Assembly: GCF_000143415.4 (NCBI RefSeq)
Contig: NW_003314296.1
Location: forward strand, 973,645-1,037,644
Length of the DNA stretch: 64,000 nucleotides
Direction of reading: 5' to 3'
Source of the DNA: Selaginella moellendorffii
Lineage: Eukaryota; Plantae; Lycopodiophyta
The notes under the pieces were generated by a model, which saw nothing but the letters and a program-made list of their open reading frames with translations, was not told the DNA's origin and made no database searches. How positions within the stretch are numbered: position 1 is the first letter of the stretch; each line of letters starts with the position of its first letter. The translations under genes and the position numbers were made by a program. This document shows, in pieces, positions 3,811-54,500 of this stretch.

Positions 3811-4449
3811 GAGGATGTAGTACATCTGAGATCACCATATTGCTAAGACATATGGTGACACATAGTGGATCTGGAGAGTCACAACTCTCACCTATATATA
3901 TATATAGTGATAATGATATATGAGCAATAGAGTTTTTCTCTTCTTCCTTGGTATCGGAGGTCAGGGATTAAATCCTGGGCTGAATGGAGGAGGAAGAGGA
4001 GGAAGACAATAAGCCCCTTGATCTGGAGCGGCTGTGAATTGCAAATATCAAGATGGAGGTTTTCTTGTTTATTTTGTCTTATGCAAGCAACCCTAAAATA
4101 GAGGTGGTTCTTGATCAAGACTTGGATTTGAATTGGAAGGGTTGCAGCATTGCTTGCTACCACTAGAGATAATCTGATGCCCCTATTGCTACAAGGGAAG
4201 GCTTCCTTGGGCTGGAGATTTGCTGATGCTGCCAAGAGACTTCTCTTCTTGCTGGGCACTAGACGTGGAATTGCTGTGTACAAGAGCCTTAAAGCTGATG
4301 GAGAGATCACATTTGAGTGGAAGATATGGGCATGATATCTACATTAGCATGGAACAATATTAGCAGCTGTATGCTAGTACCTCAAACAAGAATAAAAATT
4401 CTAGGAATAAACAAAGTGATCATAAACAAAGGGTGGAAAGAAGGTTCTG

Positions 4450-7150
4450 CCCTAGAGGCTCACAAGCAATGGTTAACAAAATCCTAGGCCCTCTATTCCT
4501 CCTTCTGGTGGGTACAAGCAATAGCAACCTATGAAACCTACTCCTAGCAGAATAGGTAGTATGAGTCATTGCTTACATTGTGAAGAGTTAGAACATAGGT
4601 CCTCGAAATGTCCCAACAAGCATAAGACAAGGTCTTGTGTTAATATCATGAGGGAAGACGATGGTGGTGAAACTGAAGGGGTTGATGAGTTGGTCAATGC
4701 AGATTATGAGGAAGAGGAGGTGAATTACTTTTGTTACTTTCCTCAAACTTTTCTCGCAGTCAATGCAAACACTGATCCGTTAATGTATCTAGTAGGCTTT
4801 GTCCGCAGACACTAAATTCGAGTGATGATTGACACGGGAGCTACACACAACATGATATCTGAAGACATAGTTAAGTTGTTAGAATTGAATGCTGAGCAAA
4901 TGTCGTAGGTACACTTCTAGTTTGCAAAAGGTGGGCAAGTAGCTAAACAATTTGTGAATGATGTTCCAATAAAAATATCCAAGTGGAAAGAAAGAGTGAA
5001 CTTGGTAATGTTGAAAATACCAGATATTCAAATGGTGTTTGGTATAGACTTCTTCAACAAATATATTAAAGGGATTTATGGTGCTGGACAAAGTTGCATC
5101 ACTTTGAAGTTAAAAGGACATCCTTATGTGTTCTTCCAATTGCAAAAGTGCTCCTCAAAGGATTGGGATGTTAGGTTTTTTACTGTAAGAGGCACTCAGA
5201 AAGTAGCTAAGAAGGGATGTCAGACTTTTTGGGTTCAAGTGATGGAATTTGAGGGTGATGGTGACTTAATTCAAATCAGTGATGGGGTTGATTATGTACC
5301 AAAGAAGACATTGGAGTTGTTGGCAAAGAATCATGATATCTTTCCAAAGGATTTGCCACTAAAACTACCTCTTAGCCATGAGGTTAATCATTGGATTAAG
5401 GTCACTTTAGGTTCTAAACCACCTACAAAACCTTTGTATTGTTTGAACATCAAAGAAATGGCTAAACTCAGAAAGCAACTCATGGAGCTTCTTAACAAAG
5501 GTCATATCTAACCAAACAAGTCATCTTATAGAGCGCTGATCCTTTTTGTTATGAAAAAGGATATATATTAATTATCAAGCACTCAACAAGATCACAGTTA
5601 AAAACTATTATCCTTTACTTCACATTGATGACTTGTTTAACCAACTTTTAAGGCTTTTAAGACTTGATATGAATCTTATGAGTTCCTTGTTATACCATTT
5701 GGGTTATGCAATGTTCTAGCAACATTCAACACAATGATGGATAGAATATTTGGAGATTATTTGGACACGTTTGTTGTTTTATATATCAACAATGTTCTAG
5801 TCTTTAGTGAAATGTTGGAGGATCATTCGAAACACTTGGAGCTAGTGTTTTAGAAATTGTATGAACATAAACTATATGCTAAAGAAAGTAAATATGCTTT
5901 TAGACAATTACATATAAACTTTCTTGGACATATAGTTAGTGGTGGTGTAATTAAGGGGATTCAAAGAAGGTGGAAGCGGTGAAATCCTGGGAAGTCCTGA
6001 CTACTGTATCAGATGTTCATTCTTTTCTCGGTTTGGCGGGATACTATTGCAAATTTGTCCACAATTTTGCAAGAATTGCTCTTCCGTTGACTGAGTTAAT
6101 GAAGAGTAGTGTACCATTTCATTGGACACTAGCTTGTCAGTGTGCTTTTGTACAGTTGAAGGAAATTTTGACTATGATTCCTATTTTTAGGATCTTAGAT
6201 TTTGTTAAACCCTTCAAAGTGAATTGTGATGCACTTGGCTATGCTATTGGTGTTGTGTTGCAGCAAAATTGTGACAAAATGGTTGATATTATGCTAAGGC
6301 GACATGGTTATCCTATTGCATTCTATTCCAAGAAATTGGATGAAACTCAACGAAGATGGCCAACACATGAGAAAGAGATGTTTACTATAGTGTCAACGTT
6401 GGAACACTAACGACATTATTTTGGTGGACATACCAAGGTTTATACAGATAATAACACACTGAGCTACTTTTCTACATAACCTAAATTTATGCTAAAGCAA
6501 GCTCATTGGCAAGAGAAGCTTGCTAGATTTGAGCTTCTTCCTTTGGTTAGCAAAAAAGTTATAGGATCTTGCTTTTTGCCTCAGCTTTAGGCAATATTGG
6601 CAATTAATACAGACTGGTTGGAGGATGTTTGGGCTTCTTATGATAGTGATCCATTGGCGAAGGCAATCTTGCACTATGTGGAATTGTCAAAGCAAAACCT
6701 TGGTAGTGAAGCGAAGAAAGTTGCTAATCAAACTAATGTGAAGCTTCACTACTCAGTTCAGGATGGGCTTATATTCTATAAGAAAAAAAGATTATATCTT
6801 CCCTTTAAGGATTTGTAGTAGTTGTTTCTGTGGGAACATTATGATGTTCTAGCAGTAGGACATGGTGGAAAACGCAAGACTCTTGTTTTATTGGAAAAGG
6901 GATTTTTCTGGTCTAGTATAGAAGGTGATGTAGCGAACTATGTCCATTCCTGCCCTATATGCCAACAATGTAAGCACATAATTGAGAAGCAGGCTGGAAA
7001 GTTGTAATGCATTTCAGCACTAGCATAGCCATTTCAGAGTGTGGCACTTGATTTCATCACTTGCTTGCCAAAGTCTAAAGGTTATGATATTTTGATAGTG
7101 GTTGTGGATCGGTTGTCGAAGATTGCACACATCATTCCAGGCTAGGTGCC
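4450..7150 (+). mobile_element. Degenerate Ty3/gypsy gag-pol, 3'-truncated within integrase
   Basis: Zinc knuckle CLHCEELEHRSSKC, protease IDTGATHN, RT remnants, RNase H (FLGLAGYY, NCDALGYAIG, WPTHEKE), and integrase HHCC (HYDVLAVGHGG...CPICQQC). Confidence 0.9.
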
Positions 7151-9319: not shown

Positions 9320-10265
9320 TCTCATACTCCATGACAAGCTCATGAGCATGTGTAAAATTCTTAAGAGGCTCCCAAGTTGATTCACAAGTTAGGTAACCTT
9401 TCTATTTAACTAGATACTTTTGACATTTAGAACGTTGAGTCCAATAATTATCCAAAATAACTTTAGCTTCATACTCAAGTTCACCATCAATGAGCGTTGG
9501 TGGAGGACGAATGTCCATAGAGTGTTCCCTAGCAGTGTGATATGGTGCTAGTAAACTAACATAAAACACATTATGTATATAGGACAATTCATCGGGAAGA
9601 TAAAACTTATAGAATACATCACCAACTCGCCTCAACACCCAATAGGGTCCAACATATCTTGGTAATAGCTTCCGAGACAATGAGCCTTTGACATTTAAGT
9701 TCTAGGAAGATAGCCACACCTGATCTCCTATTTGATAGGATACATCCCAATGATGTTGATCCTTATCATGTTGATACCTATCTTGAGCTTTGCTTATTGC
9801 CTCAATAGCTCTAAACCAACCTTGGCATAGCTGCTCCGCATAAGTCTCAATGGCCAAGACTAACACTTCGGACATTGGTTTCGGTACAACAATCTATTAA
9901 GGCACCCCATGAGCATTCCCTTGCAGCATCTCCTATGAAGAACAACTAATAGCACTATGAAATGTGTTGTTATAAAAACTTTCTGTTGTATCTAAATGCT
10001 CAACCTACTTGCATTAGTCCGCCGGGATATAGTTATGTAGATAATCCTCAGCTTGAGCATTCACACGTTCCATTTGCCCATCAATTTGAGGATAATAAGC
10101 CGTATTAAACTTCAACTTGGTACCGAGCAACTAGAATAATGTGCCCCAAAACTTCCCTATAAATCTTGAATCTCTATCTGAGATCATCTCTTTGGGAAGA
10201 CCATAAACCCACACTACTTCATGGAAAAAAAACTTTGTTACTTGCTTCACATTCACTATTTCCAT
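9320..10265 (-). mobile_element. Chromovirus integrase C-terminal half plus chromodomain (degenerate, no introns)
   Basis: GLPKEMISDRDSRF, AYYPQIDGQMERVN, RKLLPRYVGPY, HNVFYVSLL, EYEAKVILD..YLVK*KGY..STWEP. Confidence 0.9.
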
Positions 10266-12191: not shown

Positions 12192-12929
12192 TCACACTTT
12201 AATCTCATTATATTTCACAATTTCACAATCGCTAGTCGACTTAGCAGACCTTTCTGCATGGAACCACTGGATCTTCCGCCCCTCGAGTTGGCGCCCTCTC
12301 CTGGCGAGCCCGTCCGCTACATTATTCTCATATACCTTGTCGTGTGCCTTGACTTTGCACAGCCGGATCTCCATCCCGCTCTTTGCTGCCGCACTAACGA
12401 TGCACTGCAGGAGCGGCTTGAGCTGGATACAGTCGGGGTGCTCAGGCCGGCACTGCGCAAACTGCAACAGCTTCAGCGACTGCAAACTGTCCGTGTAGAT
12501 GTTCAGCTTGTTGGACTGCCAGTAACCTCGAGACCTGTACAGCTGCACCGCCGCGATGGAGTCGTGTATCGCAAGAAGCTCCATGTTGAGCGAAGACACG
12601 ATGAGGCTGTCGACGATAGGGTTCCCGTTTTTGCACCAGCCGTTCTCCTGCGGGACTTGCACCGCCATGCCCGTCCCTTTGTGGGACTCCTCTGCCGACG
12701 GGAAGTAGACGCCGTACCCTGCCGAGAGCGACTCTTTATCGAAGGATCCATCAGTGAATACATTCCAAGGAGAAGATGCTTTTATTTCATCAAGTCCTCG
12801 CTCACGAGTACAAATGGTAATGGCCCATTTCTGCCATGGCTTTCCTAATCTGACTCCTACACCACCACACACCTTCTTGTTCGCGATGCACGCTTCATCC
12901 TCGCCAGCTTTGCGCTTGAGAGACATCAT
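12192..12929 (-). CDS. Intronless stand-alone RNase H (RNase HI-like), 245 aa
   Basis: Full catalytic set in order: VFTDGS, ELLAI, IYTDS, KVKAH, NNVADGLAR. Basic N-terminus (KRK...KK). Confidence 0.85.
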   Translation of the reverse strand: MMSLKRKAGEDEACIANKKVCGGVGVRLGKPWQKWAITICTRERGLDEIKASSPWNVFTDGSFDKESLSAGYGVYFPSAEESHKGTGMAVQVPQENGWCKNGNPIVDSLIVSSLNMELLAIHDSIAAVQLYRSRGYWQSNKLNIYTDSLQSLKLLQFAQCRPEHPDCIQLKPLLQCIVSAAAKSGMEIRLCKVKAHDKVYENNVADGLARRGRQLEGRKIQWFHAERSAKSTSDCEIVKYNEIKV

Positions 12930-13377
12930 CTTGTCGGAAGATTACCCTAAGTTTTGGGGCCTCAATTTCCAAATGTATAGGATCCTTGGCTCAAAAGGTT
13001 CCGTGGCTTTGGTCGTACGAAAACGTTTTCGTACTAGATGCGAACTCGCCACCGCTTTCAATCCACTGGAGAAACAGATGAAGAAAAGATAAAAAACTGC
13101 ACTTATCCAGCCAAAGATGGATTGATCGATTAGCAAACTATGACAGCAACAACAATGAAAAAGTGAAAAGAGGCATTTTCTTCACTGGATGAAAGCCTTC
13201 CACTGTACTGTAGTGTCCCTTTTCGCAGCCGCTCGGGAACAGCCTGAGACCACTGTGTGAGATTGGGAGGGGACCCGTGAAAGCCATCTTGTTATTCACT
13301 TGATCAAACTTCCGCCAGTTCACCCGGTTCCTCAAATCGTAAGCGCTTCAAGTATTAGGAAATGGAGAAAGAAAAAG

Positions 13378-21481: not shown

Positions 21482-21581
21482 NNNNNNNNNNNNNNNNNNN
21501 NNNNNNNNNNNNNNNNNNNNNNNNNNNNNNNNNNNNNNNNNNNNNNNNNNNNNNNNNNNNNNNNNNNNNNNNNNNNNNNNN
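21482..21581. other. Assembly gap (100 N)
   Basis: Run of n. Confidence 1.
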
Positions 21582-21823: not shown

Positions 21824-22834
21824 TTATTTAATTGCTTTCCACCATTCCTTTCCACTTTGCAAATCATATATTATAATACTGCCATTGTCTTTTGGGACTA
21901 AACTTGTTCTGATATTGCAAGGTTGATGACAAAAAACATTATTTCCCCATACTCTTTTATGAAATTGATTTTTGACAAAAAAATGACCATCACTTTGTAG
22001 ATGTGCATAACATTTATAATGTACTTTGCCATCTTCAATTTTAGTAAACCATACTATAGATTTATCAACAGTTTTAATATATTTTAGTATACAGTCCTTC
22101 ATTTCAAGTTTATAACTCCCTTTGGCTGAGATAATACTTTTCCCTTCCATTATATAGCTTCCATATATGTATTGGACTTCATAACCACCACCAATAATGC
22201 TTTTTATATAAGGCCAACAATATGTATCAGTATCATAATCAGTATCATGTAACTTATAACTGTTTGTGATATTATTATTTTGAAGTACCATATCATCAAA
22301 AAAGACCAGTTCATATTTAATATCAAACTCTAAATAGTTATACTCTCCCTTTCCTGCAAAAACTTTATTTGGTTCTGATGCTGCATTTAAGATTATATGA
22401 TTATGAATTGCTGTAAAAGCTTGTATAAAAATATTATCATTAAACCCTTGTGGAATTGTAGGATCAGCTGTACAAAATATATGAACAATTGGAAGATTTA
22501 CATATTGTATAGAAAGAATCTGCCTAAGGACACTAAAGGTAATTTTAATCATTTTTTTTTTATCAATTTCAACAAAAATCTCCTTGAATTGTTGTAGAAA
22601 ATCATTGAAAGTATTTATATATCTTGTCATTTTAGCAATTAACATACCAAATTTCTTAAGAGTCAATGAAAAAGGTTTACCAATTGCAGTAATAGTTGGT
22701 CTTTCTCCTAGAGCTACAAATGCTATAATAAGAAATGTAAATATTAAATTAAAGCTTAAGTTGAAAATCATTTTAAGAGAAGATATATAAACTTTTGTAT
22801 ATTTAACTAGCAAGAAAATCAGGTTGGTAAACAT
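21824..22834 (-). CDS. AT-rich intronless 336-aa protein: hydrophobic N-terminus, unknown middle region, C-terminal bulb-type (GNA-like) lectin domain
   Basis: Long open frame in very AT-rich DNA. The C-terminus (EGKSIISAKGSYKLEMKDCIL..VW..CYAHLQSDGHFFV..VW..LVPKDNGSIIIYD..WW) fits the B-lectin three-repeat pattern. Confidence 0.6.
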   Translation of the reverse strand: MFTNLIFLLVKYTKVYISSLKMIFNLSFNLIFTFLIIAFVALGERPTITAIGKPFSLTLKKFGMLIAKMTRYINTFNDFLQQFKEIFVEIDKKKMIKITFSVLRQILSIQYVNLPIVHIFCTADPTIPQGFNDNIFIQAFTAIHNHIILNAASEPNKVFAGKGEYNYLEFDIKYELVFFDDMVLQNNNITNSYKLHDTDYDTDTYCWPYIKSIIGGGYEVQYIYGSYIMEGKSIISAKGSYKLEMKDCILKYIKTVDKSIVWFTKIEDGKVHYKCYAHLQSDGHFFVKNQFHKRVWGNNVFCHQPCNIRTSLVPKDNGSIIIYDLQSGKEWWKAIK

Positions 22835-26741: not shown

Positions 26742-28772
26742 ATGAAGATCTTGAGGGAAGAGCTGCATCGATCAATCCTGGAGCTAGAGAGATACCCGAT
26801 ACAATCACGATTCACTGTTTTGATCCGTCACTGTGGCAAATCCTTGGCTCTGGAAGAAGGCCGTCGCTTGCACAGGATTCTTGCGAGAGATGGCGCAGAC
26901 CAAGAAACTTTCATGGGCAATCTGCTCGTCCAAATGTATGGCCAGTGCAGGGACCTCGCTCAATGCAAGCAAGCATTCGAGAAGATCAGGAAGAGGAATC
27001 TTTACTCTTGGAACATAATGGTCGCGGCATATGCCCAAAACGGGCATCTTGATCTCGCTGCGCGGCTCTTCGGGCTGATACCAGAGACGAACTTGGTGTT
27101 GTGGAACGCAATGATATCTGGGTATGCGCAAAACAAGTCGATAGATATAGCGAAGGATCTCTTTGAAAAAATGCCCGAGAGGGATGTTGCGTCTTGGAAC
27201 TCGATGATTTCGGCATTTGCTCTACATGGGGAATGTAGCAACGCAGTGGCGCTTTTGCTGGAAATGGACCTGGAAGGGATCCATTGCAACAGGATCACAC
27301 TCTTGAGCATTTTAGACGCTGTCGATCGCATCCATTTGAAGTTCCTCCACGCGGAGATTTGCAGCCGAGGACTTGACACCGAGGTGGCGATGGGTACGGC
27401 ACTGATCAAAACGTACGGGAGGATGGAATCTCCGGATCTAGCGCGCAGTGCGTTTGATAGAATCTTGGAGCGTAATATCGTCAGCTGGAACACTCTCGTT
27501 GAGGCTTGTTTTTCGGATGAGATACTCCGTCGGATGCCTCTATGGGATCTTGTGTCGTGGACTTTGGCGTTAACGGCATATGCCCGTGATGGGAATTTGC
27601 TGGATGCCATTCGCATCTTCATGGGCATGCCCGAGAGAAGCAGCGTGACGTGGAATGCCATGCTGGCGGGCTGCGTCCAGCATGGAGCTTTGGGCGAGGC
27701 CGATTGGCTGTTTGAGGTGATGCCCGCTAGGAATGTGGTGACGTGGACGACGATGATCTTTGGAGGGGATCACAGGAGGTCTTTGAGCTTGTTTCGAGCC
27801 ATGGATTTGGAGGGTCTTCAGCCAAATAGGATCACGTTTTTGAGCCTCATCGATGGATTTGGATCGCCGCAAGCTTTGGACGCGTCGCGAATCGTCCACA
27901 AATGTGCCGCGTACGAGAGTCTCGATCTGGATCACGAGGTTTTGTCCAGTCTCGTCAAAATGTACGCTAGATGTGAGAGTCTAGTCGATGCGAAACTCTT
28001 GTTCCAGAATGAGATGAATCGATCAAGTTTGGTGTACAACTCCATGCTCTGTGCTCTCTCGGGAGAAGAAGAAGAAGCGCTAGTGTTCTTGCGAGAAATG
28101 GACTTGGAGGGCGTCAAAGTGGAGAAATCTTCTCTCATCGACACACTTGAGAGCTGCAAATCCATAGCCCAAGGCAAAATCCTTCACAGCAGCATTCCCA
28201 GCGAGCTTCTCCGATCGGACACGGCCCTGGGAACTTCCGTGCTCTACATGTACGGCCGACACGGGGACGTGATCACCGCCCGTACAATCTTCGAGGAACT
28301 CCACGAACGAAACCTGGTCGCCTGGACAGCGCTAATCTCAACTTACGCACAAAACGGACGTGGAAACACGGCCCTGGAGCTCTTTCGTCTCGTGGGATTG
28401 GATGGAATCCTCCCGGACACCGTCACCTTTGCAAAAATTCTCATCGCATGCAGCCATGCAGGGCTCGTCACCCACGGCTGCCAATTTTTCAGCTCGTTCA
28501 TGGGGGATTACAACCTGGTTCCATCGCTGGATCACTACAATTGCCTCATCGATCTCTTGTGTCGAAATGGGCGTTTGTTTGATGCCCAAGAAGTGGCCGC
28601 AAACATGCCATTCGAGCCAAACCTCGTGTCGTGGGTGACTTTGCTGGGCGGCTGCTCGATCCACAGCGATCCAGAGCGAGCATTTGGAGCAGCCCAGCGA
28701 GCGAACGGAGTCGACAGTCGCAGCACCGCTCCCTATTCCTTGCTCTCCAACCTTGTAAAATCCCTGAAATGA
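26742..28772 (+). CDS. PLS-class PPR protein with E domain and no DYW (putative organellar RNA-editing factor), 676 aa
   Basis: Single-exon P/L/S repeats (RNLYSWNIMVAAYAQNG, RDVASWNSMISAFA) and E domain MPFEPNLVSWVTLLGGCSIH...APYSLLSNL. Confidence 0.92.
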   Translation: MKILREELHRSILELERYPIQSRFTVLIRHCGKSLALEEGRRLHRILARDGADQETFMGNLLVQMYGQCRDLAQCKQAFEKIRKRNLYSWNIMVAAYAQNGHLDLAARLFGLIPETNLVLWNAMISGYAQNKSIDIAKDLFEKMPERDVASWNSMISAFALHGECSNAVALLLEMDLEGIHCNRITLLSILDAVDRIHLKFLHAEICSRGLDTEVAMGTALIKTYGRMESPDLARSAFDRILERNIVSWNTLVEACFSDEILRRMPLWDLVSWTLALTAYARDGNLLDAIRIFMGMPERSSVTWNAMLAGCVQHGALGEADWLFEVMPARNVVTWTTMIFGGDHRRSLSLFRAMDLEGLQPNRITFLSLIDGFGSPQALDASRIVHKCAAYESLDLDHEVLSSLVKMYARCESLVDAKLLFQNEMNRSSLVYNSMLCALSGEEEEALVFLREMDLEGVKVEKSSLIDTLESCKSIAQGKILHSSIPSELLRSDTALGTSVLYMYGRHGDVITARTIFEELHERNLVAWTALISTYAQNGRGNTALELFRLVGLDGILPDTVTFAKILIACSHAGLVTHGCQFFSSFMGDYNLVPSLDHYNCLIDLLCRNGRLFDAQEVAANMPFEPNLVSWVTLLGGCSIHSDPERAFGAAQRANGVDSRSTAPYSLLSNLVKSLK

Positions 28773-40859: not shown

Positions 40860-41300
40860 CTCTCAGACTCGAACTCGAACTCGGACTCAGACTCAAACTC
40901 GGACTCAGACTCGGGCTCGGACTTGGACTCGGCCTCGGCCTCGGCCTCGGTCTCGGTCTCGGCCTCGGCCTCGGTCTCGGTCTCAGTCTCGGTCTCGGTC
41001 CCGGTCTCGGTCCCGGTCTCGGTCTCGGTTTCAGACTCCATCTCGGGTCCTTCTCGGACTCCATCTCGGATTCCATCTCGGGTCCATCTCGGACTCCATC
41101 TCGGACTCCGTCTCGGTTCATCTTGGACTCCATCTTGGATCCATCTCGGACTCCATCTCAAACTCTGTCTCGGTCCATCTCAGACTCCATCTCAAACTCT
41201 GTCTCGGTCCATCTTAGACTCCATCTCAGACTCCATCTCGGACTCTGTCTCGGTCCATCTCAGACTCCATCTCGGACTCCATCTCAGGTCCATCTCGGAC
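40860..41300. repeat. Hexamer/12-mer tandem repeat (CTCGGA/CTCGGT/CTCCAT) within the element B LTR
   Basis: Direct inspection. Related arrays occur at 44170-44445, 50555-50800 and 52230-52430. Confidence 0.9.
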
Positions 41301-44085
41301 ACTTCCACGTGTCATGTGTTGGTCCTTTTGGGTCCCTTTTTAGGGCCTCATTTATTGCTCACTTCGTGCTCATTCCTCGAGCACTTTGTTGGGAGTTCCA
41401 TTCCCGCTCTCGACCTTTCAAGTTAGAGCTTTTAATCCAAACGTGTTACGCTCATTTGGTTTTTGCTTTGGCCACTACCACGAGGCGCCCTTCCGGCTCC
41501 ACTTTGGGGCCTAGGGATTTTGTGTCTTACAACTCCACCACCCATAGACAAAGTTCGATATCCTCATTGAACGGTAAACCCTTTTTATAAAGTAACACCC
41601 GCATGTATTACCATTTCCATCCTTGGCACCCAGCCAAAGTTTGTCTATGGTTTGACATTGAGGGCTCATTATGCTTTGTCCATCCTTTAAGGAGTATAGT
41701 CTCTCCAACTTATTGACTTATTTGACCACTTGTGGTGATTCTCTCCGTTTATTGGTTTAATCCTCGCTAAACCTTTTAGAGACACCGTCTCTATCTTAAT
41801 CCACTACTCCTTCTCAAGTAGTTTTAGTTTCCATCGATATAACCTTTGCACTTTGGAACTTTTACTTTTGACTTCTCAAAGTCAATTTCTTAGGTGTCTC
41901 CGACATTTTGCATTGCACATATTATGCAACTCCACTTCCCCATCCTAAGAAGTTCTCTACTTCAAAGCACCATCATCCTCTCTTCTATTTCATGCCACCT
42001 TAGGCACTAAGTTCTAGTTATTATACTTTGTGCTAGGGCTGTCTATGGCCCTATCATTTGGCTACCTTACCGTTCCCTCCCTTGGAGTTTCCACTTTCAC
42101 CAAATCGGAGCAATTGGGAATCCATCTTTAAAAATACATTGTCTTTCCCATAATTCGTTAGCACCTAACACATTAGTGTTCTTGGCCTAATTTTGTCTTT
42201 TGGATTCTTTCCCATTATTCTCATGGCTCTTTTCTTAGCCACTAGTCTTTTGCTCCTATCCTTGATTGTTACACCTAGCAACATCGGATCGCTACCTCCA
42301 TTCTCGAGATATCCCTTCGGTTCTATAGTAAGGACTTTGTTTTGCTAAGTCCAGAGGGTGTTCACCCCTAGTAAGTTTCTTTAGCATTTTCTGCTGTGGG
42401 TTCTATCCCTAGCCCAACTTTGTGACCCCCCCCATGGGTCTCTTATAAAGATTACTTTCTTTGGACTCACTATGCTATCGCATTGCCACAGATCATTTCC
42501 ATTAGGTGTTCTTCCCACTTGGTCACTTTGACCAAGCCACACCATCATCAATAGTTCAATTCAACACTTTGAACTAGGAACCTTATCCGTTAACCTTACA
42601 AGGACCTTGTCCTTGTTTTAGCTATAAGATCACCTAGTGATCACATGTTAGCACCTTAATAAGTTTGCCAATAGGTACTAATTCTTTAAGACCTTTAAGT
42701 TGTTCACCATGACCCCGGGGGCATCCCCCATACTTGGTGGTGCACCCAAGCCAGCCCTTCCAGCTAAGGGTCTATAGCAACTAAGACTGGGTGTCCCCAT
42801 CTCATTCACCACGTCCTTGGTGCCACTCGCACCAAAGTGGTCAAGTTAGATATGCCAAGCCACACTAAGCAATCTAACCATGCATCACGACTCCGAGGCA
42901 TCCCTTGTTTGGCGGTGTGCCCAAGCCAGTCTCCTCACTGAGAGTCCATGACCACCGAAAAATGAGTGTCCTCATATTCCAAACCATCACCATGCCCTAG
43001 TGATTTGGGACTCGAACCCAAGCACTAGAGGGTCGAGACTCGAACCCAACCTCCGTATATGCATCTATGGATGGCATCGCACAGGATGCCTGGCGTGACT
43101 CCCTACGCTGGTGCACCAACATGTACTTAAAGTGTGTTATAGATCACAGCTTAGGAACCTAGTTCCTCTGCATTGCCAAGTCCTGTCACTTGACAAGTCT
43201 GTGATCATGTATGGACTCCTCCATGCTCCGCCCCATGGGCCACCCCTTTTGAAGTCAGCACTTTCAACTAAGGGATTTGTTCCCCTGACTCACCAATCTC
43301 ACTTAGCAAGTCATTTGGCCACTGTAACATGGTTCATTCATAAGCGTGAAAGTCTTTAACCATCAACTTTCGTTCAAAGCCCTCTCTTTGAACACTCGGG
43401 AACTACTTCCCCAACCTTGATAGCCTCGCCTCATAACCAGCTTCAAGACCACACTTCTGCTGCGCCACTTTGATTTCGCACGCTCTAAGAACCATTTACA
43501 CTTGGCTTTCTAGGTACTTATTTACCTAGAATTATCTTCGGGAACCTTCAAGGAACTCTATTCCTTAGCTTGCTAGGGTTTTTCCTTCGTAAGCTCCCTA
43601 CTCACCATATGGTTTAACATGGATAATTCTACATTTTAGACTCTTCATAACATCGCAATTGCTAGTAACAACATCCTTGAGCACCCTCTTGATTCTCCAT
43701 TCCCAACTTGCATAACCACTGTTGGTTATGCTCTTCGATTTCTATGGTTCAGTTCCATCCCAATATTTCTTGCCTTTTGGCCTCATATGTTTCCTTTGGT
43801 TATTCTCCTCCAGACTAGGAGGATAGCTTTACACCTTCAGCTAGTATTCATAAGGATGAACCTACCTAATAGCTTAGGGAGTGGTTCCTCAATTTGGGCA
43901 TGCTCACCTTATAATCCCACACACCGGGATTACTGTTGCTACTTATGGGCCTTTATATGCCCATCACCAGTCTTGCCAAAATCCCATTTTTAGCTTTGTC
44001 CAAATCGAGTAGACAGATTTCTTCTATCTCCAGAACCTTGGACATTTGGATAGCACCTCCTATCCATCATTCGCTAGGGACTCAG

Positions 44086-45234
44086 TGTAAGGAACCAACT
44101 CGCCGAGGTGTCGTAGGCTAAAGGAACCCCGAAAGAATGACCAAAGTGACAAAGAGTTCATCGGATGGGACCAAGTCGAAGATCGAGTCCAAGACCGACT
44201 CTAGGACCGAGTTCGAGATAGAGTCCGGAATCGAGTCCAAGACCGACTTGGGGACCGAGTTCGAGTCCGAGTTCGAGACCGAGTTCGAGACGGAGTCCGA
44301 GATCCGAAATCGGGTCCGAGACCGAGTCCGAGGTCGAGTCCGAGGTCGGGTCCAAGATCGGGTCCGAGATCGAGTCCGAGATCGAGTCCGAGACCGAATC
44401 CGAAGTTGGATCCGAAATCGGGTCCGAGATCGAGCCAGAGACTAAGTCCAAATACTAATACGGGTCAAGGGGTGAAAGCCCAAAGCGTGCGTCTCCCAGG
44501 GGGGGGGGGGCTGCAGGGGGTTCCCAAAGTACAGTAGGGATAGTGAGGTCCAAGAACTAGTTTAGAAGGGACTCTCCAGTGGGGCTCCTAAACTGACTTG
44601 AGGTTGGGACTGGGACCGAGGGGCCTTGGGTGGGAGTGAGCATGGACTTGGTTGGTGCCGGAGGGGCCATCCAAGGAAGTGCTCAAGAGCAGCTCCCACT
44701 CCCGAAAGGGAAATTGATTGCGGTGCTCCCGGCTCGTGTGGAGTGGTGCCCCACTTGAGTACCATGTGGCTCATTGGTCCTCACCCTTCCTAGGGGCTTG
44801 GGCCTTCCTTCGGGATGGAAGTGGGGGGCGAGAGGTACCCATACTGGGCCGATAGGCCACAGTGTTTCTCCCCGGCGTCCCGAAGCAAGTGTTGCACTCA
44901 AGACTTGGGATTTAGAGGGTCCCATGATCAAGTCTTGTGGTACCAAAGGATGTTAGGAACCTGGAAGCTTGGTGTGCTTGGCTGCTTGTGCTTGCGGGGA
45001 GTGTAGCCGAACCTTAAGTCCAGTCTAACCCGGGGAGGGGGATTGGGAGTGATTTGGGAATCCGTGGATGGATGGCTAACACTCCATTGCTCGTGCAGTG
45101 TGTAGCTGAGACCAAGTAGGAGCTGGTACCATAGGCGAGAACCTTGGCAAGGGAACTTAGCAAAAGCCAAGGTGGTGTTGGACGGATAGACGAGGTAAGC
45201 TGGCAAATTGGAAAGGAAAAATTTGTGGCTTACA
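44086..45234 (+). repeat. 5' LTR of element C (1149 nt)
   Basis: By-eye comparison with the 3' LTR gives about 33 substitutions (mostly transitions), two 12-nt repeat-unit indels and one poly-G indel. Confidence 0.95.
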
Positions 45235-48200
45235 ATTTGGTATCGGAGCCTTTATCTCAGTTCTAGCGAAGGATAGAGGCGGATTGCTAGGAGATGGCAA
45301 GGGCAGGGCGTAAGCGAACCCAGGCGGAGACGGAACCTCCGCCGGAGCTGGAGCCTCCTGTCGAACAAGAGGCTATGGATGAGGAATCCTTGCATGAGGA
45401 GGACTCTAGTGAGGAAACTTCCAAACAGGAGTCCGGTGGCGAGGTTCGGTCGTCCAAGGCTCGATTGGACGTGCTAGAAGGACAGTTGGCACAGACCAAT
45501 GCCCTGCTGGAAACTCTCGTACGCAAGCTAAAGCGTGACGAGAGGCGGAAGAAAAAGAAAAAGACTGCGGATGCTGGCAGCGCAGAAGGTGCGGATCTTT
45601 CGGCCGGGACTGAGGCAAAACCAGACAAGGTCGAACAGACCGAAGTAGAATCAGTCCCTCAGGCAGTTCCCAAGTACAAACCAAAGCCCCCACCGGTCTT
45701 CAAGGGAGTGAACGACTATAAAGTGGTGGAGGATTGGTTTTACGATATGGAGGACTACTTCCGAGCGTTGCGATTACCAAGCTCGGAGAAGGTCCCATGT
45801 GCAAAACATACTTGGCAGATAATGCCAAGTCTTGGTGGAGAACGACAGAGGCCAACGAAGGACCAGTGGCCACTTGGGACATGATGAAGGCGAGGATCCG
45901 CGCAACATACGTTCCTCCGAATGCCACTCTGCATCTGAGAGATGAGCTGAGTAGGCTGAAGCAGACTGGAACCATCCAGGAATATGTGAATGGGTTCATG
46001 GCAAAGAAGATACTTGTCACGGACATGGGGGATATGGATGCGTTCCATGCCTTCATATCAGGTTTGCAAACCTGGGCTCGCAGTGAGGTGATGCGGTGGA
46101 ACCCGACCAACTACAAGGAAGCGTTGGATGCGGCCATCAAGGTGCATTTCAACGATAACCTGCGAAAGGGGAACACGACGGGGTCGGGATCCACATTTAG
46201 CAAAGGGGCCAAACCAAGGGGAACGTATAGCAAGGGGAAATTCAAAAAGAGTTTCTCTAAGAATGAGTCCTCGGGGTTCCGGAAAGGCAAATCCGGTGGC
46301 CAGCGAGCGAGTACGTGGGGGAGTCAAGCGAAAAAAGACAAACCCACGGATAAAAAGGTCAAGTCGTATAGCAGCGTGGGAAACAACGTATGCTACAACT
46401 GCGGCGAAGCGGGACACTTCTCGAGGGAATGTCCCTACCCGAAGAAGGCCAGAGCCAATATGGCCATCAAGTCGGGTGAAGTCCAAACTGAGGTATGTGA
46501 TTCAGTCCCTAACTCAAAGTTACTCATTACACGAGCAACTTTGGTAGAGAGTCGTTCGCGACATCTACTAGCCCTCCGAGGGAAGCTCGAAGGTAACTTT
46601 GTTAAGATCCTTATTGACACGGGTGCTTCGGATAATTTTGTGGCTGCAGACATAGTCCGGCAAGCCGGACTAACGGTGCAGCGGCTAGGCGAACCAAGGA
46701 CTATAGATTTTGTTCAGGGTAGCCAAAGCACCGATGAGGTACTTTGACAAGCGAGAGTCGAAGTGGGGACATGGAAAGTGGACATGGATTTCACCATCTT
46801 GGACATGGCGGGATTTGACGTGATCTTCGGAATGGATTGGTTTAATCGGTTCGTGGTAGCCCTGCATGGGCAAGGTAGGAACCTTGTGGTATTGGCGAAT
46901 GCCCAAGGAAGAAGATCTAGGGTGGAGGCCCAGGATCTAAAGGTAGGGCAAAGCAAGGCCAAAGAGTCATGCTTAAACCTGGTGTCCACGAGAGGACAAC
47001 TCACTAAAGGAACTAAAGCAGCCTTTTTGTGCTTACTCTCGGTGAAGAGTGACAAAAAGACAAGAACGGAAGAAGTACCTTTAGTGATCCAGCAGGTGCT
47101 GGACCAATTCCAGGATACCATGCCGGAGGAGCTACCGGCGGGGTTGCCCCCCGCACGACCGATAGAACATAAGATTGAGCTGGTCGAGGGTGCTGAGGCG
47201 GTGGTTCATCCACCCTATCGATTGAAAGAAAAAGAACTCAAGGAGCTCAAGAGCCAACTAAAGGAGTTGGTGGACAAAGGGTATGTTAGGTTGAGCAAGT
47301 CGCAGTATGGGGCGCCGGTGCTATTTGTGAAAAAGAAAGATGGATCTATGCGCATGTGCATAGACTACCGGTTGCTCAACAAGTATACCAAGAAGAACAA
47401 GTACCCTTTGCCAAGGATCGAGGACCTGTTCGATAGGTTGGGAAAGGCAAAATACTTCTCGAGGATTGACCTAAGGTCAGGATACTACCAGATCAGGGTA
47501 GCTGAGGAAGATGTCGAGAAGACAACCTGTCGAACGAGGTATGGGAGCTTTGAGTTTCTGGTGATGCCCTTTGGGCTGTGCAATGCGCCGGCAACGTTTT
47601 CGGCATTGATGAACCACATCTTTGTACCCTATCTGGATCACTTCGTGGTCGTCTATATCGACGATATCCTGATCTATAGCGAGACGCTAGAGGAGCATGC
47701 CGAACACTTGGCGAAGGTGTTTGAGAAACTAAGGGAACACAAACTGTATGCTAAAGAGAGCAAATGTGACTTTGCTCAACAAGAGGTAAAGTTTCTCGGG
47801 CATGTAGTGGGTCAGGACGGGCTCAAGGTGGACCCGGAGAAGGTCCAAGCGATCTAGGAATGGGAGCGGCCTTCGAATGTACATGAGTTGAGGGCGTTCT
47901 TGGGGCTATGCAACTACTATCGAAAGTTTATCAGACACTATTCGAGAGTAGCCCTACCCTTAACGGACCAAACAGGAAAAGGGAAGATGGTTTGGACAGC
48001 GGAATGCGAGGTGGCATTCGTCCACCTCAAAGGGAAGTTGAGGAAGGCTCCGGTGTTGGCATTACCAGATTTTGGTAAGGACTTTGAGGTAGACACGGAT
48101 GCTTCAAACTTTGCGTTGGGCGCAGTTTTGAAGCAAGACAACCATCCAATAGCGTTTTTCTCAAAGAAGTTGGACAAGGCTCAAAGGAAGTGGCCTGCCC

Positions 48201-49166
48201 ACGAGAAGGAATTGTTTGCGGTGGTCAAGGCGCTCAAGGAGTGGCGACACTACCTTGGGAGACACTTCAAGGTTTACACGGACAATGTGGCAACGAAACA
48301 CTTCTTGTCACAGCCCGACCTAAGAGGGAAACAAGGTTGGTGGGCCAATGCCTTGGCCAAGTTTGATTGCGAGATTCTGTACAAGCCTGGGAAGAGCAAC
48401 ATCGTGGCAGATGCGCTAAGTTGAAAAGCGAGCTTGAGGTTGGCGATATCCAGCGCAACAGCAACCTTCTGGGACGATGTGCGGACAGCATATGAGAACG
48501 ATGGTCTAGCACAAGAAGTGTTGTTGAGGAATCTAGAGGCGCGGGAAGCTCACCAGAGAGGTGAGCTGCTAACGGAAGAGAAAACGGGCTATGCGGAACG
48601 CAACGGACTCATTTATTACAAGCAAACGAGGGTATATGTTCCAGAAGGGGGACTAAGGAAGGTAGCCTTAGAAGAGTGTCATGACGGACCTCTTGCGGGA
48701 CACGGCGGAGTGCCCAAGACGATGGGCTTACTCAAGAGGAAGTACCATTGGCCAGATATGGCTAAGGACGTCCAAGACTATGTAAAGACATGTCCAACAT
48801 GTCAGCAAGTCAAAGCCGTGACTAAGGCTAGTGGGGGTTTGTTGCAAAGTATCCCAATTCCAGATCGTCCGTGGAAATGTCTTACGATGGACTTCATCAC
48901 GGGACTACCCCCAAGCGAGGGGTTCGATGCGATATTCGTGGTGGTGGATCGATTTTCGAAGATGGCACATTTCATACCCACCACAACGAAAGTGGATGCG
49001 GAAGGTGTGGCGAAGCTGTTCTTTGAACAAGTGGTTCGAGTGCGGGGAAGGCCAGAAGAGATTATCTCAGATCGAGATAAGATCTTCACTAGTAGGTTCT
49101 GGAGGACCCTCCTGGAACAGTATCGCACCAAGTTGAAATTCAGCACAGCCTATCACCCACAGACAG

Positions 49167-49213
49167 GTATGGGGTATTAAGTCAAGTTTGGTGGTCCTAA
49201 CACTTCTTGACAG
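49167..49213 (+). other. GT-AG intron (47 nt) in the integrase catalytic core
   Basis: ACAG|GTATGG...CTAAC..TTGACAG|AC; removal restores YHPQTDGQTERVN. Confidence 0.85.
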
Positions 49214-49631
49214 ACGGACAAACGGAAAGGGTGAATAGGTAGCTGGAGGATTATTTGCGATGCTATGTCTCGGGAGACCAGACCGATTGGGTAAGTCATT
49301 TGGGACTTGCGGAAATATGTTATAACAACTCACCACATTCAAGTATCGGGGTGAGTCCATGGGAAGTCATCAATGGGCGAGCTATTGAAGGTCCTGTGGA
49401 ACTCGGCGTGGCCGAGTATCATGGAGAGTTACCCGCAGTGGAGGCATTCACGGCGGAGAGACTCAACATTTGGAATCTAGTGAGGGATTCCTTGGAAAGG
49501 GCTCAACAAAGGCAAACCAAGTACGCGAACCTAAAGCGCCGGGATGTAGAGTTCCAAGCTGGGGAGAAGGTGTGGCTGAACACCAAGAACCTCAGGCTAC
49601 CAAGTGGGATCAGCCGAAAGTTGACCCAAAG

Positions 49632-49683
49632 GTAAAAATGCATGTATTCCTGTAAATGAATTGATCTTGAGTTCCTTAAGCAG
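49632..49683 (+). other. GT-AG intron (52 nt) in the integrase GPY/F module
   Basis: CAAAG|GTAAAA...TTGAT..TTAAGCAG|G; removal restores KLTQRFAGPY and the frame into the chromodomain. Confidence 0.85.
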
Positions 49684-50468
49684 GTTCGCGGGGCCTTACG
49701 AGATTGAGGCACGAATCGGTAAAGTGGCTTACCGACTCCGACTTCCTCGAGAGATGGGGAAGATGCACCCAGTGTTCCATGTGAACTTACTCAAGACGTA
49801 CTTTGAGGATCCGCTTCGCAAGGACCAAGTAAAACCTTTACCTGAGGTTATCCAAGGGGAAGAGGAATACGAAGTCAAGGCTATCCTCAATGCGCGCAAG
49901 AGCAAGCGACAAGGACGCGAGGTGAGAGAGTTCCATGTGAAGTGGAAAGGATTTCCACACTGCGAAGCAACATGGGAACCGGAGGAGAACCTAGCGAACG
50001 CGCGAGATCTAGTGGAGGAATTTCTGTAAAGCAAAACTCTATGTACTTATGCAAAGTTCAATTAAAAATATATATTTGCAAAGTTGAGCAAGTGGCATAT
50101 GTTGGGACCCGAAGGCGCGCCGAAGGTGAGCTAATTAGCATGGGTTAGCTAGGTCGACCCGGCGTAGGGAGCTACGCCCGACTCCCTGCGGGGATGTCGA
50201 ATCCGTAGACGTATTCTACGGAGGTTGGGTTCGAGTCCCAACCCCCTAGTAAAGCAAGGCTGGGTTCAAGTCCCGACCCCATACTAGGGCGTGGTGAGGG
50301 GAGGAGTATAGGGACACCTATATTCCGTTGTCATGGGCTCTTGGCCGGGGAGGCTAACTTAGGCATACCGCTAAGTGGGGGGATGCCCCCGGAGATATGG
50401 TCAACAAGTCATAGGATAAAACGAGACGTTCGATGTGGGCATCGAACTTCTTCTATGGGTGGTGGAGT

Positions 50469-51594
50469 TGTAAGGAGCCAACTCGCCGAGGTGTCGTAAG
50501 CTAAAGGAACCCCGAAAGAATGACCAAAGTGACAAAGAGTTCATCGGATGGGACCAAGTCGAAGATCAAGTCCAAGACCGACTCTAGGACCGAGTTCGAG
50601 ATAGAGTCCGGAATCGAGTCCAAGACCGACTCGGGGACCGAGTTCGAGTCCGAGTTCGAGACGGAGTCCAAGATCCGAAATCGGGTCCGAGACCGAGTCC
50701 GAGGTCGAGTCCGAGGTCGGGTCCAAGATCGGGTCCGAGATCGAGTCCGAGACCGAATCCGAAGTCGGATCCGAAATCGGGTCCGAGATCGAGCCAAAGA
50801 CTAAGTCCAAATACTAATACGGGTCAAGGGGTGAAATCCCAAAGCGTGCGTCTCCCAGGGGGGGGGGGGGCTGCAGGGGGTTCCAAAAGTATAGTAGGGA
50901 TAGTGAGATCCAGGAATCAGTTTAGAAGGGACTCTCCAGTGGGGCTCCCAAACTGACTTGAGGTTGGGACTGGGACCGAGGGGCCTTGGGTGGGAGTGAG
51001 CATGGACTTGGTTGGTGCCGGAGGGGCCATCCAAGGAAGTGCTCAAGAGCAGCTCCCACTCCCGAAAGGGAAACCGATTGTGGTGCTCCCAGCTCGTGTG
51101 GAGTGGTGCCCCACTTGAGTACCATGCGGCTCATTGGTCCTCGCCCTTCCTAGGGGCTTGGGCCTTCCTTCGGGATGGAAGTGGGGGGCGAGAGGTACCC
51201 ATACCGGGCCGCTAGGCCACGGTGTTTCTCCCCGGCGTCCCGAAGCAAGTGTTGCACTCAAGACTTGGGATTTAGAGGGTCCCATGATCAAGTCTTGTGG
51301 TACCAAAGGATGTTAGGAACCTGGAAGCTTGGTGTGCTTGGCTGCTTGTGCTTGCAGGGAGTGTAGCCGAACCTTAAGTCCAATCTAACCCGGGGAGGGG
51401 GATTGGGAGTGATTTGGGAATCTGTGGATGGAAGGCTAACACTCCGTTGCTTGTGCAGTGCGTAGCTGAGACCAAGTAGGAGCTGGTACCATAGGCGAGA
51501 ACCTTGGCAAGGGAACTTAGCAAAAGTCAAGGCGGTGTTGGACGGATAGACGAGGTAAGCTGGCAAATTGGAAAGGAAAAATTTGTGGCTTACA
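50469..51594 (+). repeat. 3' LTR of element C (1126 nt)
   Basis: Direct repeat of 44086-45234. Confidence 0.95.
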
Positions 51595-54500
51595 CTCAGT
51601 CCCTTGAGCTTTATCTAATGCCTTTGCAACACTAAACACCACTTCCTAGTGTTTTAGAGTGTTTGGGTGTATTAATGATGGCCTTCTTTAGCAATGAGCT
51701 TTCCCTTTACAACATTGACTTACTATTTCGCAACATAAACAGTTTCTGCCCCATAAGGGTATATTTAACTTCCTTATCCCCATAAGAAGTCTTAGGTAGT
51801 TACCTTCAACCAATTTAACCAATTATCTTGCACCTCTTGCTTAATTGCCCCATAGTTGTCAAGTCCTATAACTCATTGCTTAGTGCTTCCACACCTCCAT
51901 CATTATCTGGGTCACCACACTCCAACCACATGCTTTCTAGCTTAGGCTATGCCATTCCCTTGGCAAGGGGTTCCCATGAACCCATCAACATAACCTCAAG
52001 GTATCTCATTTTGTCACATTTGGTGTCTCCACACAGCTCTACGAGCCTACCTCTATAACACTTCTTACTACACCATAGTGTTTATACACAATTCTATGCC
52101 AAAGTTGCTTTCTTTTTGGGGAACACCTTTCCCACGACTTTAGCATAGCATATTCTGCTATTGATGAAATACCCTCTGTTTTCATCCTTGGATCTTATGA
52201 TCCCCCCCATCCTTTAGTCTCAGTTTCAAACTCCATCTCAGGTCCTTTTCGGACTCCATCTCGGATTCCATCTTGGGTCCATCTCGAACTCCATCTCGGA
52301 CTCCGTCTCGGTTCATCTCGGACTCCATCTCGAACTCCATCTTGGGTCCATCTCGGACTCCATCTCGGGTCCATCTCGGACTCCATCTCGGATCCATCTC
52401 GAACTCCATTTTGGGTCCATCTCGGACACTTCCATGTGTCATGTGTTGGTCCTTTTGGGTCCTTTTTTAGAGCCTCGTTTATTGCTCGTTTCGTGCTCAA
52501 TCCTCAAGCACTTTGTTGGGAGTTCCACTCTCGCTCTCGATCTTTCAAATCAGAGCTTTTAGTCCAAACGTGTTATGCTTGTTTGGTTTTTGCTTTGGCC
52601 ACTACCACGAGGTGCCCTTCCGGCTCCACTTTGGGGCCTAGGGATTTTGTGTCTCACACCATCTTTGATGTGTTACCATCTCCAACTTCTGTGGGACATA
52701 ATTACATAGTTTGTTTTGTTCTTGATGTTCTACCATCTCTTATTAATATCGAGCATGATTATAACATTGATTAGTGAGCTATAGATGATGCAATTTAGTT
52801 CTTGGAGAATGTTTGAAGATTGAGTTTATGGGAAGACAATGTATATAAGCTTGAATGGATTTTAGATTGTGATGATGAGTTTAATTATTATAAAGATAAC
52901 TTTGGAGTCGAAGTGGAGATTTCATAGGGTAGGTGCTAATCCTTCAATTTACCATTTGATTCTTTCTCTTAACCTCTTACTCTTTCCCAACTTTTTCTTA
53001 TTTTTCAGCATGAGCCATCTTCTTATGTTTTTAGTATTTTTTCCTTATCTGTAGTGTTTCTTTTTCATAACATGTTAATCATGTGTGACTCTCATGATTC
53101 TCATTCTCAATCCAATGTTAAGTTGAGTGTTTTATGTCCTCCTCATACTAATTTAAATGTTAAGTATATGCATGAAGTTGAGAATCTTATTTTTATTTCA
53201 TTGGTAGAGTCTTTAATTAATTCTAGTGTTAAATATTCCCATATTCTAAAGGCTAAATCATTTTGGCTAGAGTTTTGGGTTAAATGTGTGTCCCCATTTG
53301 TTAATACTGTTGAAAGTTTTTATTTTACCATTGTTACTAAGGAGTTTATATATTCCCTTGAAAGTATGGATATTAATATTGATTTTTCCATCTCAAGTGT
53401 TGAGGAAGTTGAGCAGTGTAAATCTTTTGCTTATATTATGGTGGTTAAAGTATTTTATGATAAGAAGTCCTTTATTTTCCAAGCTTAGGCACATGTCCTT
53501 TTTTTTATTTCCCTATTTTTGCATTTTTTATCTACTGCAAATTCTTTTTTCAATGCATTTTTATCCACTTTTTCTTCTTCCATACTATTTCTTCCTTAAT
53601 TTTTTTTTGCTTTCTCTTTTTTGCCCCAATGCTTCAAACTTTTTTTTCTTCAAAGGAGGGGTTAAAAGGGATAGACTAGAGTCTGGTACGAACGACATTC
53701 AAACAAATGATACATCCTGCACCCATCAATAATCCTCCACGACTATTGTTAACTTAAACTCATGACCATAAATTATTTTTTATCATAAGTTATCTTTATC
53801 TAACACTACATATGGGAGATTGGACTCACTCCACTTATCCTCTACATCCTCTTTATCCCCTCCTTGAAGGAATTTTTTTTTTTGAAGTACCAACTTTATT
53901 CAGACTCATTATGTTTATTCTTACTCCACTATTTATATTTAACCTCACTCCACTATTACATTTATTTGGCCTTACTATATAAGGGTTAGATGTTCCATTT
54001 AGATTCCCTATCCTTGTCCTCACTCCACAATTTATGTCATTCGTCTTTGCTCTAGTACCATATTCATTTGTCCTCACTCCATTTTATAAATTACATTGGT
54101 TCTCAAAATCCTTTGTTTTGGTTCAAAATTATGGTTTCAATGTTGGTTCAAGTATTTGGCAATTGCATATGAAGTTACAACTAGTTCATTAAGATTCTGT
54201 AGTCTACTAATGCTTATACCATGGCTTTGGGTTTTCTTTCAATCATGGTTATTAGCAACTTTATTGCTAGTTTTGTGGGAGCTTTAGATTCATATAGTAA
54301 TTTATCATTGCCTAATAGAAGCTCCAGATATTCCACCTAACTTATTGTCATCTTCCAAAGGGGAGGATGGTGTAAAATTTGTAAATACATATGTGTACAT
54401 AAATGTATTACCTTGGCTAGGTAATACACTAATTATAATACTATAGTATATTAATTGTCCATTCAAGACTAAATTTGGTCTATCCATTATTATATATGAG

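Follow-up and report, generated by a model that had tools for sequence, protein, structure and literature searches.

Two spliceosomal introns inside the integrase of a Selaginella moellendorffii LTR retrotransposon, likely SM1-Galahad, point to a splicing-gated life cycle

An LTR retrotransposon with a divided integrase

The window, by which we mean the whole 64,000-nucleotide stretch of DNA that was analysed, contains an LTR retrotransposon of 7509 nt on the forward strand (44086-51594), flanked on both sides by the target-site duplication (TSD) CTCAG (44081-44085 and 51595-51599). Its 5' LTR (44086-45234, 1149 nt) has TG..CA ends, 12-bp tandem repeats and a G12 tract, and its 3' LTR (50469-51594, 1126 nt) carries a G13 tract. 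The two LTRs agree at 1092 of 1125 aligned bases (97.1%; 29 of the 33 differences are transitions; K2P 0.030), in keeping with the identity of about 97% and the intact TSD reported in a preliminary description of this DNA. At a plant substitution rate that we assume, uncalibrated here, this divergence would correspond to about 1 million years. A primer-binding site of tRNA-Met type lies at 45238-45249, where we take the complementarity to tRNA-Met as given and which agrees with the primer site of SM1-Galahad (see below); an imperfect polypurine-tract-like stretch occupies 50457-50467. Scanning the LTRs for promoter motifs returned no canonical TATA pair and one weak TATA-like site.

Pfam matches within the element follow the order Gag, zinc knuckle, protease, RT, RNase H, integrase zinc finger and core, SH3-like domain and chromodomain, giving the PR-RT-RH-IN order and C-terminal chromodomain that characterise chromoviruses. 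The coding region falls into three forward-strand exons. Exon 1 (45294-49166), delimited by Pfam and sequence, encodes Gag, the zinc knuckle, protease, RT, RNase H, the integrase zinc finger and the first two catalytic Asp residues; exon 2 (49214-49631, 418 nt), recognised by sequence comparison, encodes the catalytic Glu of the D,D(35)E triad and the remainder of the integrase core; and exon 3 (49684-50029, 346 nt) encodes the SH3-like integrase C-terminal domain and the chromodomain (Pfam matches PF24626, E 6e-16, and PF00385, E 2.5e-15).

The segments between them, a 47-nt GT..CTAAC..CAG at 49167-49213 (intron 1, with CTAAC resembling a branch point) and a 52-nt GT..CAG at 49632-49683 (intron 2), lie exactly where the preliminary description had placed them. 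It had also proposed that removing both restores the integrase motifs and the frame, and this holds: intron 1 falls after the first base of a codon, the total removal of 99 nt puts exon 3 in the frame of exon 1, and excision of intron 1 leaves exactly 35 residues from the second catalytic Asp to the Glu. Mapped without gaps onto Ty3 Gag-Pol (7q5b), exon 1 reaches as far as residue 1267 and the match of exon 2, itself weak (E 0.039), begins at 1281, the start predicted by 10 intervening codons plus 4. If intron 1 is retained, the frame stops at a TAA ending at 49180, ahead of the catalytic Glu, again as first described; if intron 1 is removed and intron 2 alone is retained, a stop follows at the next codon.

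G+C content is 0.43 in intron 1, 0.33 in intron 2 and 0.51 in the coding parts. At the intron 1 branch point most of the family is nearer to the canonical motif than the window copy; intron 2 of the window copy has no CTRAY, and a CTRAY-type motif in intron 2 is visible in a loose contig end from another subfamily. The preliminary description had likened both segments to host introns in size. The first intron of a BTF3-like gene is 54 nt long, and all eight host introns that we picked by eye (54-123 nt) are longer than those of the element. Compared with the remaining window DNA, the introns showed nothing alike except one 12-mer.

A long paired stem is predicted between the exon sequences flanking intron 1, with the intron looped out (49139-49247). 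This was one of two regions folded (z -2.51, with 5 of 200 shuffles equally good), the predicted fold around intron 2 being unremarkable (z -0.76), and we regard the stem as a weak lead for splicing control.

Family assignment and state of the window copy

The family is likely SM1-Galahad, a chromovirus of Selaginella moellendorffii, the match being one of structure. SM1-Galahad is described as about 7.5 kb long, with LTRs of 1076/1146, a poly-G of 11-25, TG..CA ends and a tRNA-Met primer site, and as present in hundreds of copies (PMC3350952); the window element has 7509 nt, LTRs of 1149/1126, tracts of G12/G13 and, likewise, its chromodomain in the last ORF. In the published consensus, a 3885-bp ORF whose end lies in the integrase core is followed by two short ORFs (316 and 309 bp), the last of which holds the chromodomain, a layout taken as three ORFs (PMC3350952). 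From the ATG at 45294 to the TAA at 49180 the window element, a frameshifted copy, measures 3887 nt against these 3885 bp, while its exons of 418 and 346 nt differ from the short ORFs of 316 and 309 bp. Splicing accounts for the oddity of a split-ORF SM1-Galahad. The words "intron" and "splic" have no occurrence in the main text of PMC3350952, and the call made there in 2012 that no intact copy was found, as given in the sections available, may stem from unrecognised introns. The sister family, SM2-Galahad, has a single 4731-bp ORF and hundreds of copies (PMC3350952). Placement in the Galadriel/Galahad clade is borrowed from the same source. A PPR protein encoded in the window (26742-28769) belongs to a 90% cluster with XP_024540212.1 of Selaginella moellendorffii; of five window proteins looked up in the protein collection, this was the one present.

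The window copy itself is dead: a gag frameshift near 45800 and in-frame stops at 46745, 47855, 48422 and 49240 rule out live status. The last of these stops (49240-49242) lies in exon 2, nine codons past the first junction, and is private to this copy, another letter being found in 96% of DNA depth and in all four likely-RNA runs. The preliminary description, which lacked the frameshift and the four stops, had argued from a young element; its LTR and TSD evidence survives, but the copy is dead, and it is therefore the family, not the youth of this copy, that carries the case.

Retention of the introns in family DNA

Whether other family copies carry the segments, a check proposed at the outset, could be addressed with the 16,874 family contigs that aligned at 85% identity or more in one DNA run (X1; 4512, 6038, 5207 and 1117 contigs in falling identity classes). 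Both segments are kept across these contigs, which rules out a copy-specific insertion. Summed depth, which is not copy number, is 0.71, 0.77 and 0.88 million in the intron bins against 0.92-1.15 million beside them; the coding bin 49510-49554 drops further, to 0.61 million, which shows that such dips are not confined to introns. No indel was listed in this run at the 5% setting. Variants within the introns, including intron 1, are common to many DNA contigs, and because the introns carry such shared variants they predate the spread of the family.

Family-wide retention leads us to infer that the template of reverse transcription is unspliced RNA. Alternatively, spliced RNA might be copied too, and its intronless daughters be lost or unable to spread through poor export, silencing or excess integrase. 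Introns affect both expression and silencing in plants, which counts for such a loss, as does the fact that spliced RNA still has its primer site and polypurine tract. The best 15 of 19 DNA joints, the lowest of which has a depth of 115.6, include none that skips 47 or 52 nt; the four low-support joints lie outside this set (one of them has a depth of 2), and an intronless copy present at single-copy depth or less would be compatible with it. Dead daughters would, however, still be in the genome, in numbers that reflect how often they arise, and should have appeared among these joints, and the intronless SM2-Galahad attains hundreds of copies (PMC3350952). We consider this explanation very unlikely, and retain unspliced RNA as the probable template.

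Splicing in likely-RNA contigs

Contigs were aligned from four of the six likely-RNA runs listed, each from a different study; the RNA label is a guess. The joint 49161>49209, which skips 47 nt with GT..AG at cut +5, was found in two of the four (X15 and X17), and the joint 49629>49682, which skips 52 nt with GT..AG at cut +2, in three (X15, X17 and X19); these runs contain no other joints. One contig of 1083 nt (X15 record 2) covers 48841-50022 ungapped and without either intron. Intron 1 is retained in two others (X18 record 8 and X19 record 11), and the X18 contigs terminate within intron 2. The search for junction-spanning sequences that the preliminary description had called for has thus yielded spliced joints in three of four likely-RNA studies.

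These exact joints rule out a chance occurrence of GT..AG, and both the 47-nt and the 52-nt segment are genuine introns. Both show what is expected of U2-type introns, namely GT..AG ends, presence in DNA and exact removal in likely-RNA contigs.

At the 5' side of the X19 contig, 252 letters are unrelated, which marks the contig as derived from a truncated copy. Likely-RNA contigs break at 49133 (X19) and 49462 (X17), where they fuse truncated family sequence with unrelated sequence. Fragments of the family are thus transcribed within other transcripts, where intron 2 is spliced, and part of the splicing may be host read-through.

Raw RNA reads were taken from three runs, about 12% of each (27.6 million records), and contained 5, 3 and 0 family reads, a total of eight that is too few to gauge splicing. 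Bin depths suggest that one 149-nt read lies over 49121-49316 with a 47-nt gap and that three reads reach about 25 nt into intron 2, no joint being listed in either case.

Selection on the exons

Among the best-supported 40 of 95 variants, 33 coding variants were classed; six in intron 1 and one at the stop were left out. Below 85% frequency, 20 of 21 are synonymous (9/9 in exon 1, 6/7 in exon 2 and 5/5 in exon 3). Downstream of intron 1 this amounts to 11 of 12, where random transitions should yield a fraction of about 0.34 (binomial p 8e-5). Of the 12 sites with a frequency of 85% or higher, most of which belong to the window copy alone, 7 are synonymous, as are 11 of 16 further sites seen only in likely-RNA contigs. 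Exons 2 and 3 were therefore under purifying selection while the intron-bearing family spread and, given the 11 of 12 synonymous variants behind intron 1, a protein that can be read only after splicing was conserved.

This pattern bears on two further explanations. In one, the family is non-autonomous, the segments having crippled its integrase, which an intronless family such as SM2-Galahad supplies, with splicing as incidental host read-through. Such a reading could draw on the death of the window copy, the unrelated 5' part of the X19 contig and the 2012 failure to find an intact copy, as stated in the sections available of PMC3350952; it could also draw on the exon 2 protein search, in which identities among cluster representatives were at most 48%. 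It is difficult to reconcile with 11 of 12 synonymous variants behind intron 1, with the retained D,D(35)E spacing and chromodomain, and with canonical-ended introns that are removed exactly, both of them in one contig; moreover, the 2012 call may itself follow from unrecognised introns. We give it only a slim chance.

The other explanation, that copies spread as DNA by segmental duplication or capture and that the introns never met an RNA stage, gains something from the facts that a TSD was seen for only one copy and that summed depth is not copy number. The clean TSD and 97% alike LTRs nonetheless mark the window copy as a product of reverse transcription, hundreds of copies have been reported (PMC3350952), and duplication would not yield 20 of 21 synonymous variants. 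This is highly improbable, the more so than either of the preceding explanations, and replication through an intron-bearing RNA remains our preferred reading.

Origin of the introns

Distant relatives were scored at both intron sites in 36 metagenome loci that are 29-56% identical and, coming from four assemblies, not independent. At site 1, 29 of the 30 scorable loci have 0 extra nt and one has -1; at site 2, two of 30 have 0 and 28 have -3. Inserts were thus found in 0/30 loci at site 1 and in 0/30 at site 2, and the same scoring applied to the window element as a control returned 47 and 52. A related fragment within the window, given in the preliminary description as 9320-10265 and as uninterrupted, does have 0 extra nt at both sites (as the remnant 9324-10256), but it is only 35-54% identical and so represents another family. 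Taken together, the insert-free distant relatives and the single-ORF SM2-Galahad point to gain of the introns in this family. The last five exon bases (GACAG) are repeated at the end of intron 1 and intron 2 lies within an AG|GT repeat, end repeats that would fit a gain through a small duplication or repair event.

Protein searches brought up no near relative of the family: RT matches were 39-65% identical and crowded by unrelated elements, integrase exon 1 matches had at most 58% identity, and exon 2 had no match at E 1e-15 among longer proteins. Viral contigs searched for relatives of the family gave no matches, and short integrase protein matches that were checked for ends at the intron 1 junction showed no pile-up there.

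A proposed life cycle

We consider it highly probable that the family, likely SM1-Galahad, carries two spliceosomal introns in its integrase, that spliced mRNA is likely the sole source of whole integrase, and that the unspliced pool is likely what is packaged and reverse-transcribed. The splicing-gated interpretation offered in the preliminary description is supported by DNA retention together with the spliced joints. Unspliced RNA would give at most Gag-PR-RT-RNase H and an integrase cut before the catalytic Glu, and doubly spliced RNA would give the full polyprotein including the chromodomain, with the only whole integrase. In a one-ORF element, splicing may also reduce integrase relative to Gag and RT.

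Loss of an intron is one-way, and near-complete exclusion of spliced RNA from copying is therefore needed. Spliced RNA retains gag together with its primer site and polypurine tract, and no DNA joint lacking either intron was seen among the best 15 of 19; sorting should therefore be near all-or-none and independent of any single intron. About half of our expectation falls on a BARE-like route, the most likely, in which an R-bearing genomic transcript would escape splicing and a capped, spliced mRNA could not be copied. Somewhat less favoured are routes in which Gag would capture nascent RNA before splicing, or in which splice-marked mRNA would be kept out of particles. Signals within both introns would be the least favoured route and are rather unlikely. 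The fuller proposal, to which we give an even chance, is that an autonomous LTR retrotransposon gained host-type introns in a catalytic domain, that a splicing-immune pool of genomic RNA keeps them there indefinitely, and that splicing acts as an on-switch for integrase only.

Comparison with known systems

Losing an inserted intron is the classic proof of the RNA route of LTR elements (PMC12786077), and the exceptions with introns that the accessible text of this 2025 review lists for plants are Ogre and EVADE alone. Closest in logic is Ogre (Ty3/gypsy, Tat), in which an intron is kept in DNA and a subset of transcripts is spliced for the downstream enzymes (PMC6317226, PMC12786077, PMC3735527). 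The Ogre intron, however, lies between ORFs (PMC6317226), whereas in the window element a single domain is divided by two introns of host size, which would gate integrase alone. Judged from its sequence, the element would work in an Ogre-like manner yet is not an Ogre, both introns being inside integrase.

BARE1 and EVD/copia resemble it in having a short intron in a single ORF, with spliced RNA translated and, in BARE, unspliced RNA packaged (PMC3735527, PMC5580714). In BARE, a system with two promoters, packaging is confined to unspliced, uncapped, R-carrying RNA, and DNA copies of the spliced form fail to be amplified (PMC3735527). The sign is nevertheless opposite: in BARE1 and EVD, as described in these sources, splicing switches Pol off in favour of Gag and unspliced RNA codes for everything, while unspliced RNA of the window element cannot code for whole integrase. 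Penelope-like elements likewise keep spliceosomal introns after retrotransposition but are non-LTR elements with no integrase, as far as the available text describes them, and another replication mechanism (PMC8557442). Foamy viruses make their Pol enzymes from a spliced mRNA and package them with an unspliced genome; their splice, by contrast, removes gag sequence to give a separate Pol, and the sections available describe no mini-intron within a domain (PMC7828637).

What is already known from Ogre and BARE is thus that an intron can be kept in DNA and that some of the proteins can depend on splicing; the novelty lies in having an intron inside the integrase core, where it splits D,D(35)E. 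According to the preliminary description, splicing in Ogre, EVD/copia or env mRNAs is not known to fall inside this core, and our literature search met no counterexample: none of the reports it turned up describes introns within the integrase of an LTR element, although subscription papers, Repbase and large REXdb supplements may contain one. In the same search, only two papers mentioned Galahad together with Selaginella. The available portions of PMC5718144, PMC2864245 and PMC2911113 hold nothing on introns in LTR-element pol.

A high-copy family of this kind is a natural reporter of how genomic RNA is discriminated from mRNA, any leak leaving a countable intronless copy, and its sister family, which lacks introns and shares this small genome, provides a built-in control and a datable intron gain. 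Families may be misjudged as dead when the call is based on ORFs, as the three-ORF SM1-Galahad warns; if our reading is true, other families that repeat libraries record as having a split ORF and no intact copy may be live and intron-bearing.

Other features of the window

On the reverse strand, a 336-aa ORF (21824-22834) adjoins a 100-N gap (21482-21581) and 120-145-nt repeats at 16.7-23.5 kb; it gave no Pfam match and no exact-sequence match in the protein collection. A 245-aa ORF, also on the reverse strand (12192-12929), appears RNase H-like by eye, with no exact-sequence match in the same collection, and is covered in part by a duplication (1-799 and 12427-13272) whose copies are 92-98% identical and 12.4 kb apart. 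Two decayed Ty3/gypsy remnants of other families lie at 3950-7140 and 9324-10256. Flanking the element is an older LTR-like pair (41019-41531 and 52217-52658), 86% alike over 442 nt, with 12-bp repeats that are about 70% like those of the element's LTRs but on the other strand; from this arrangement, the insertion probably took place within a related element of greater age.
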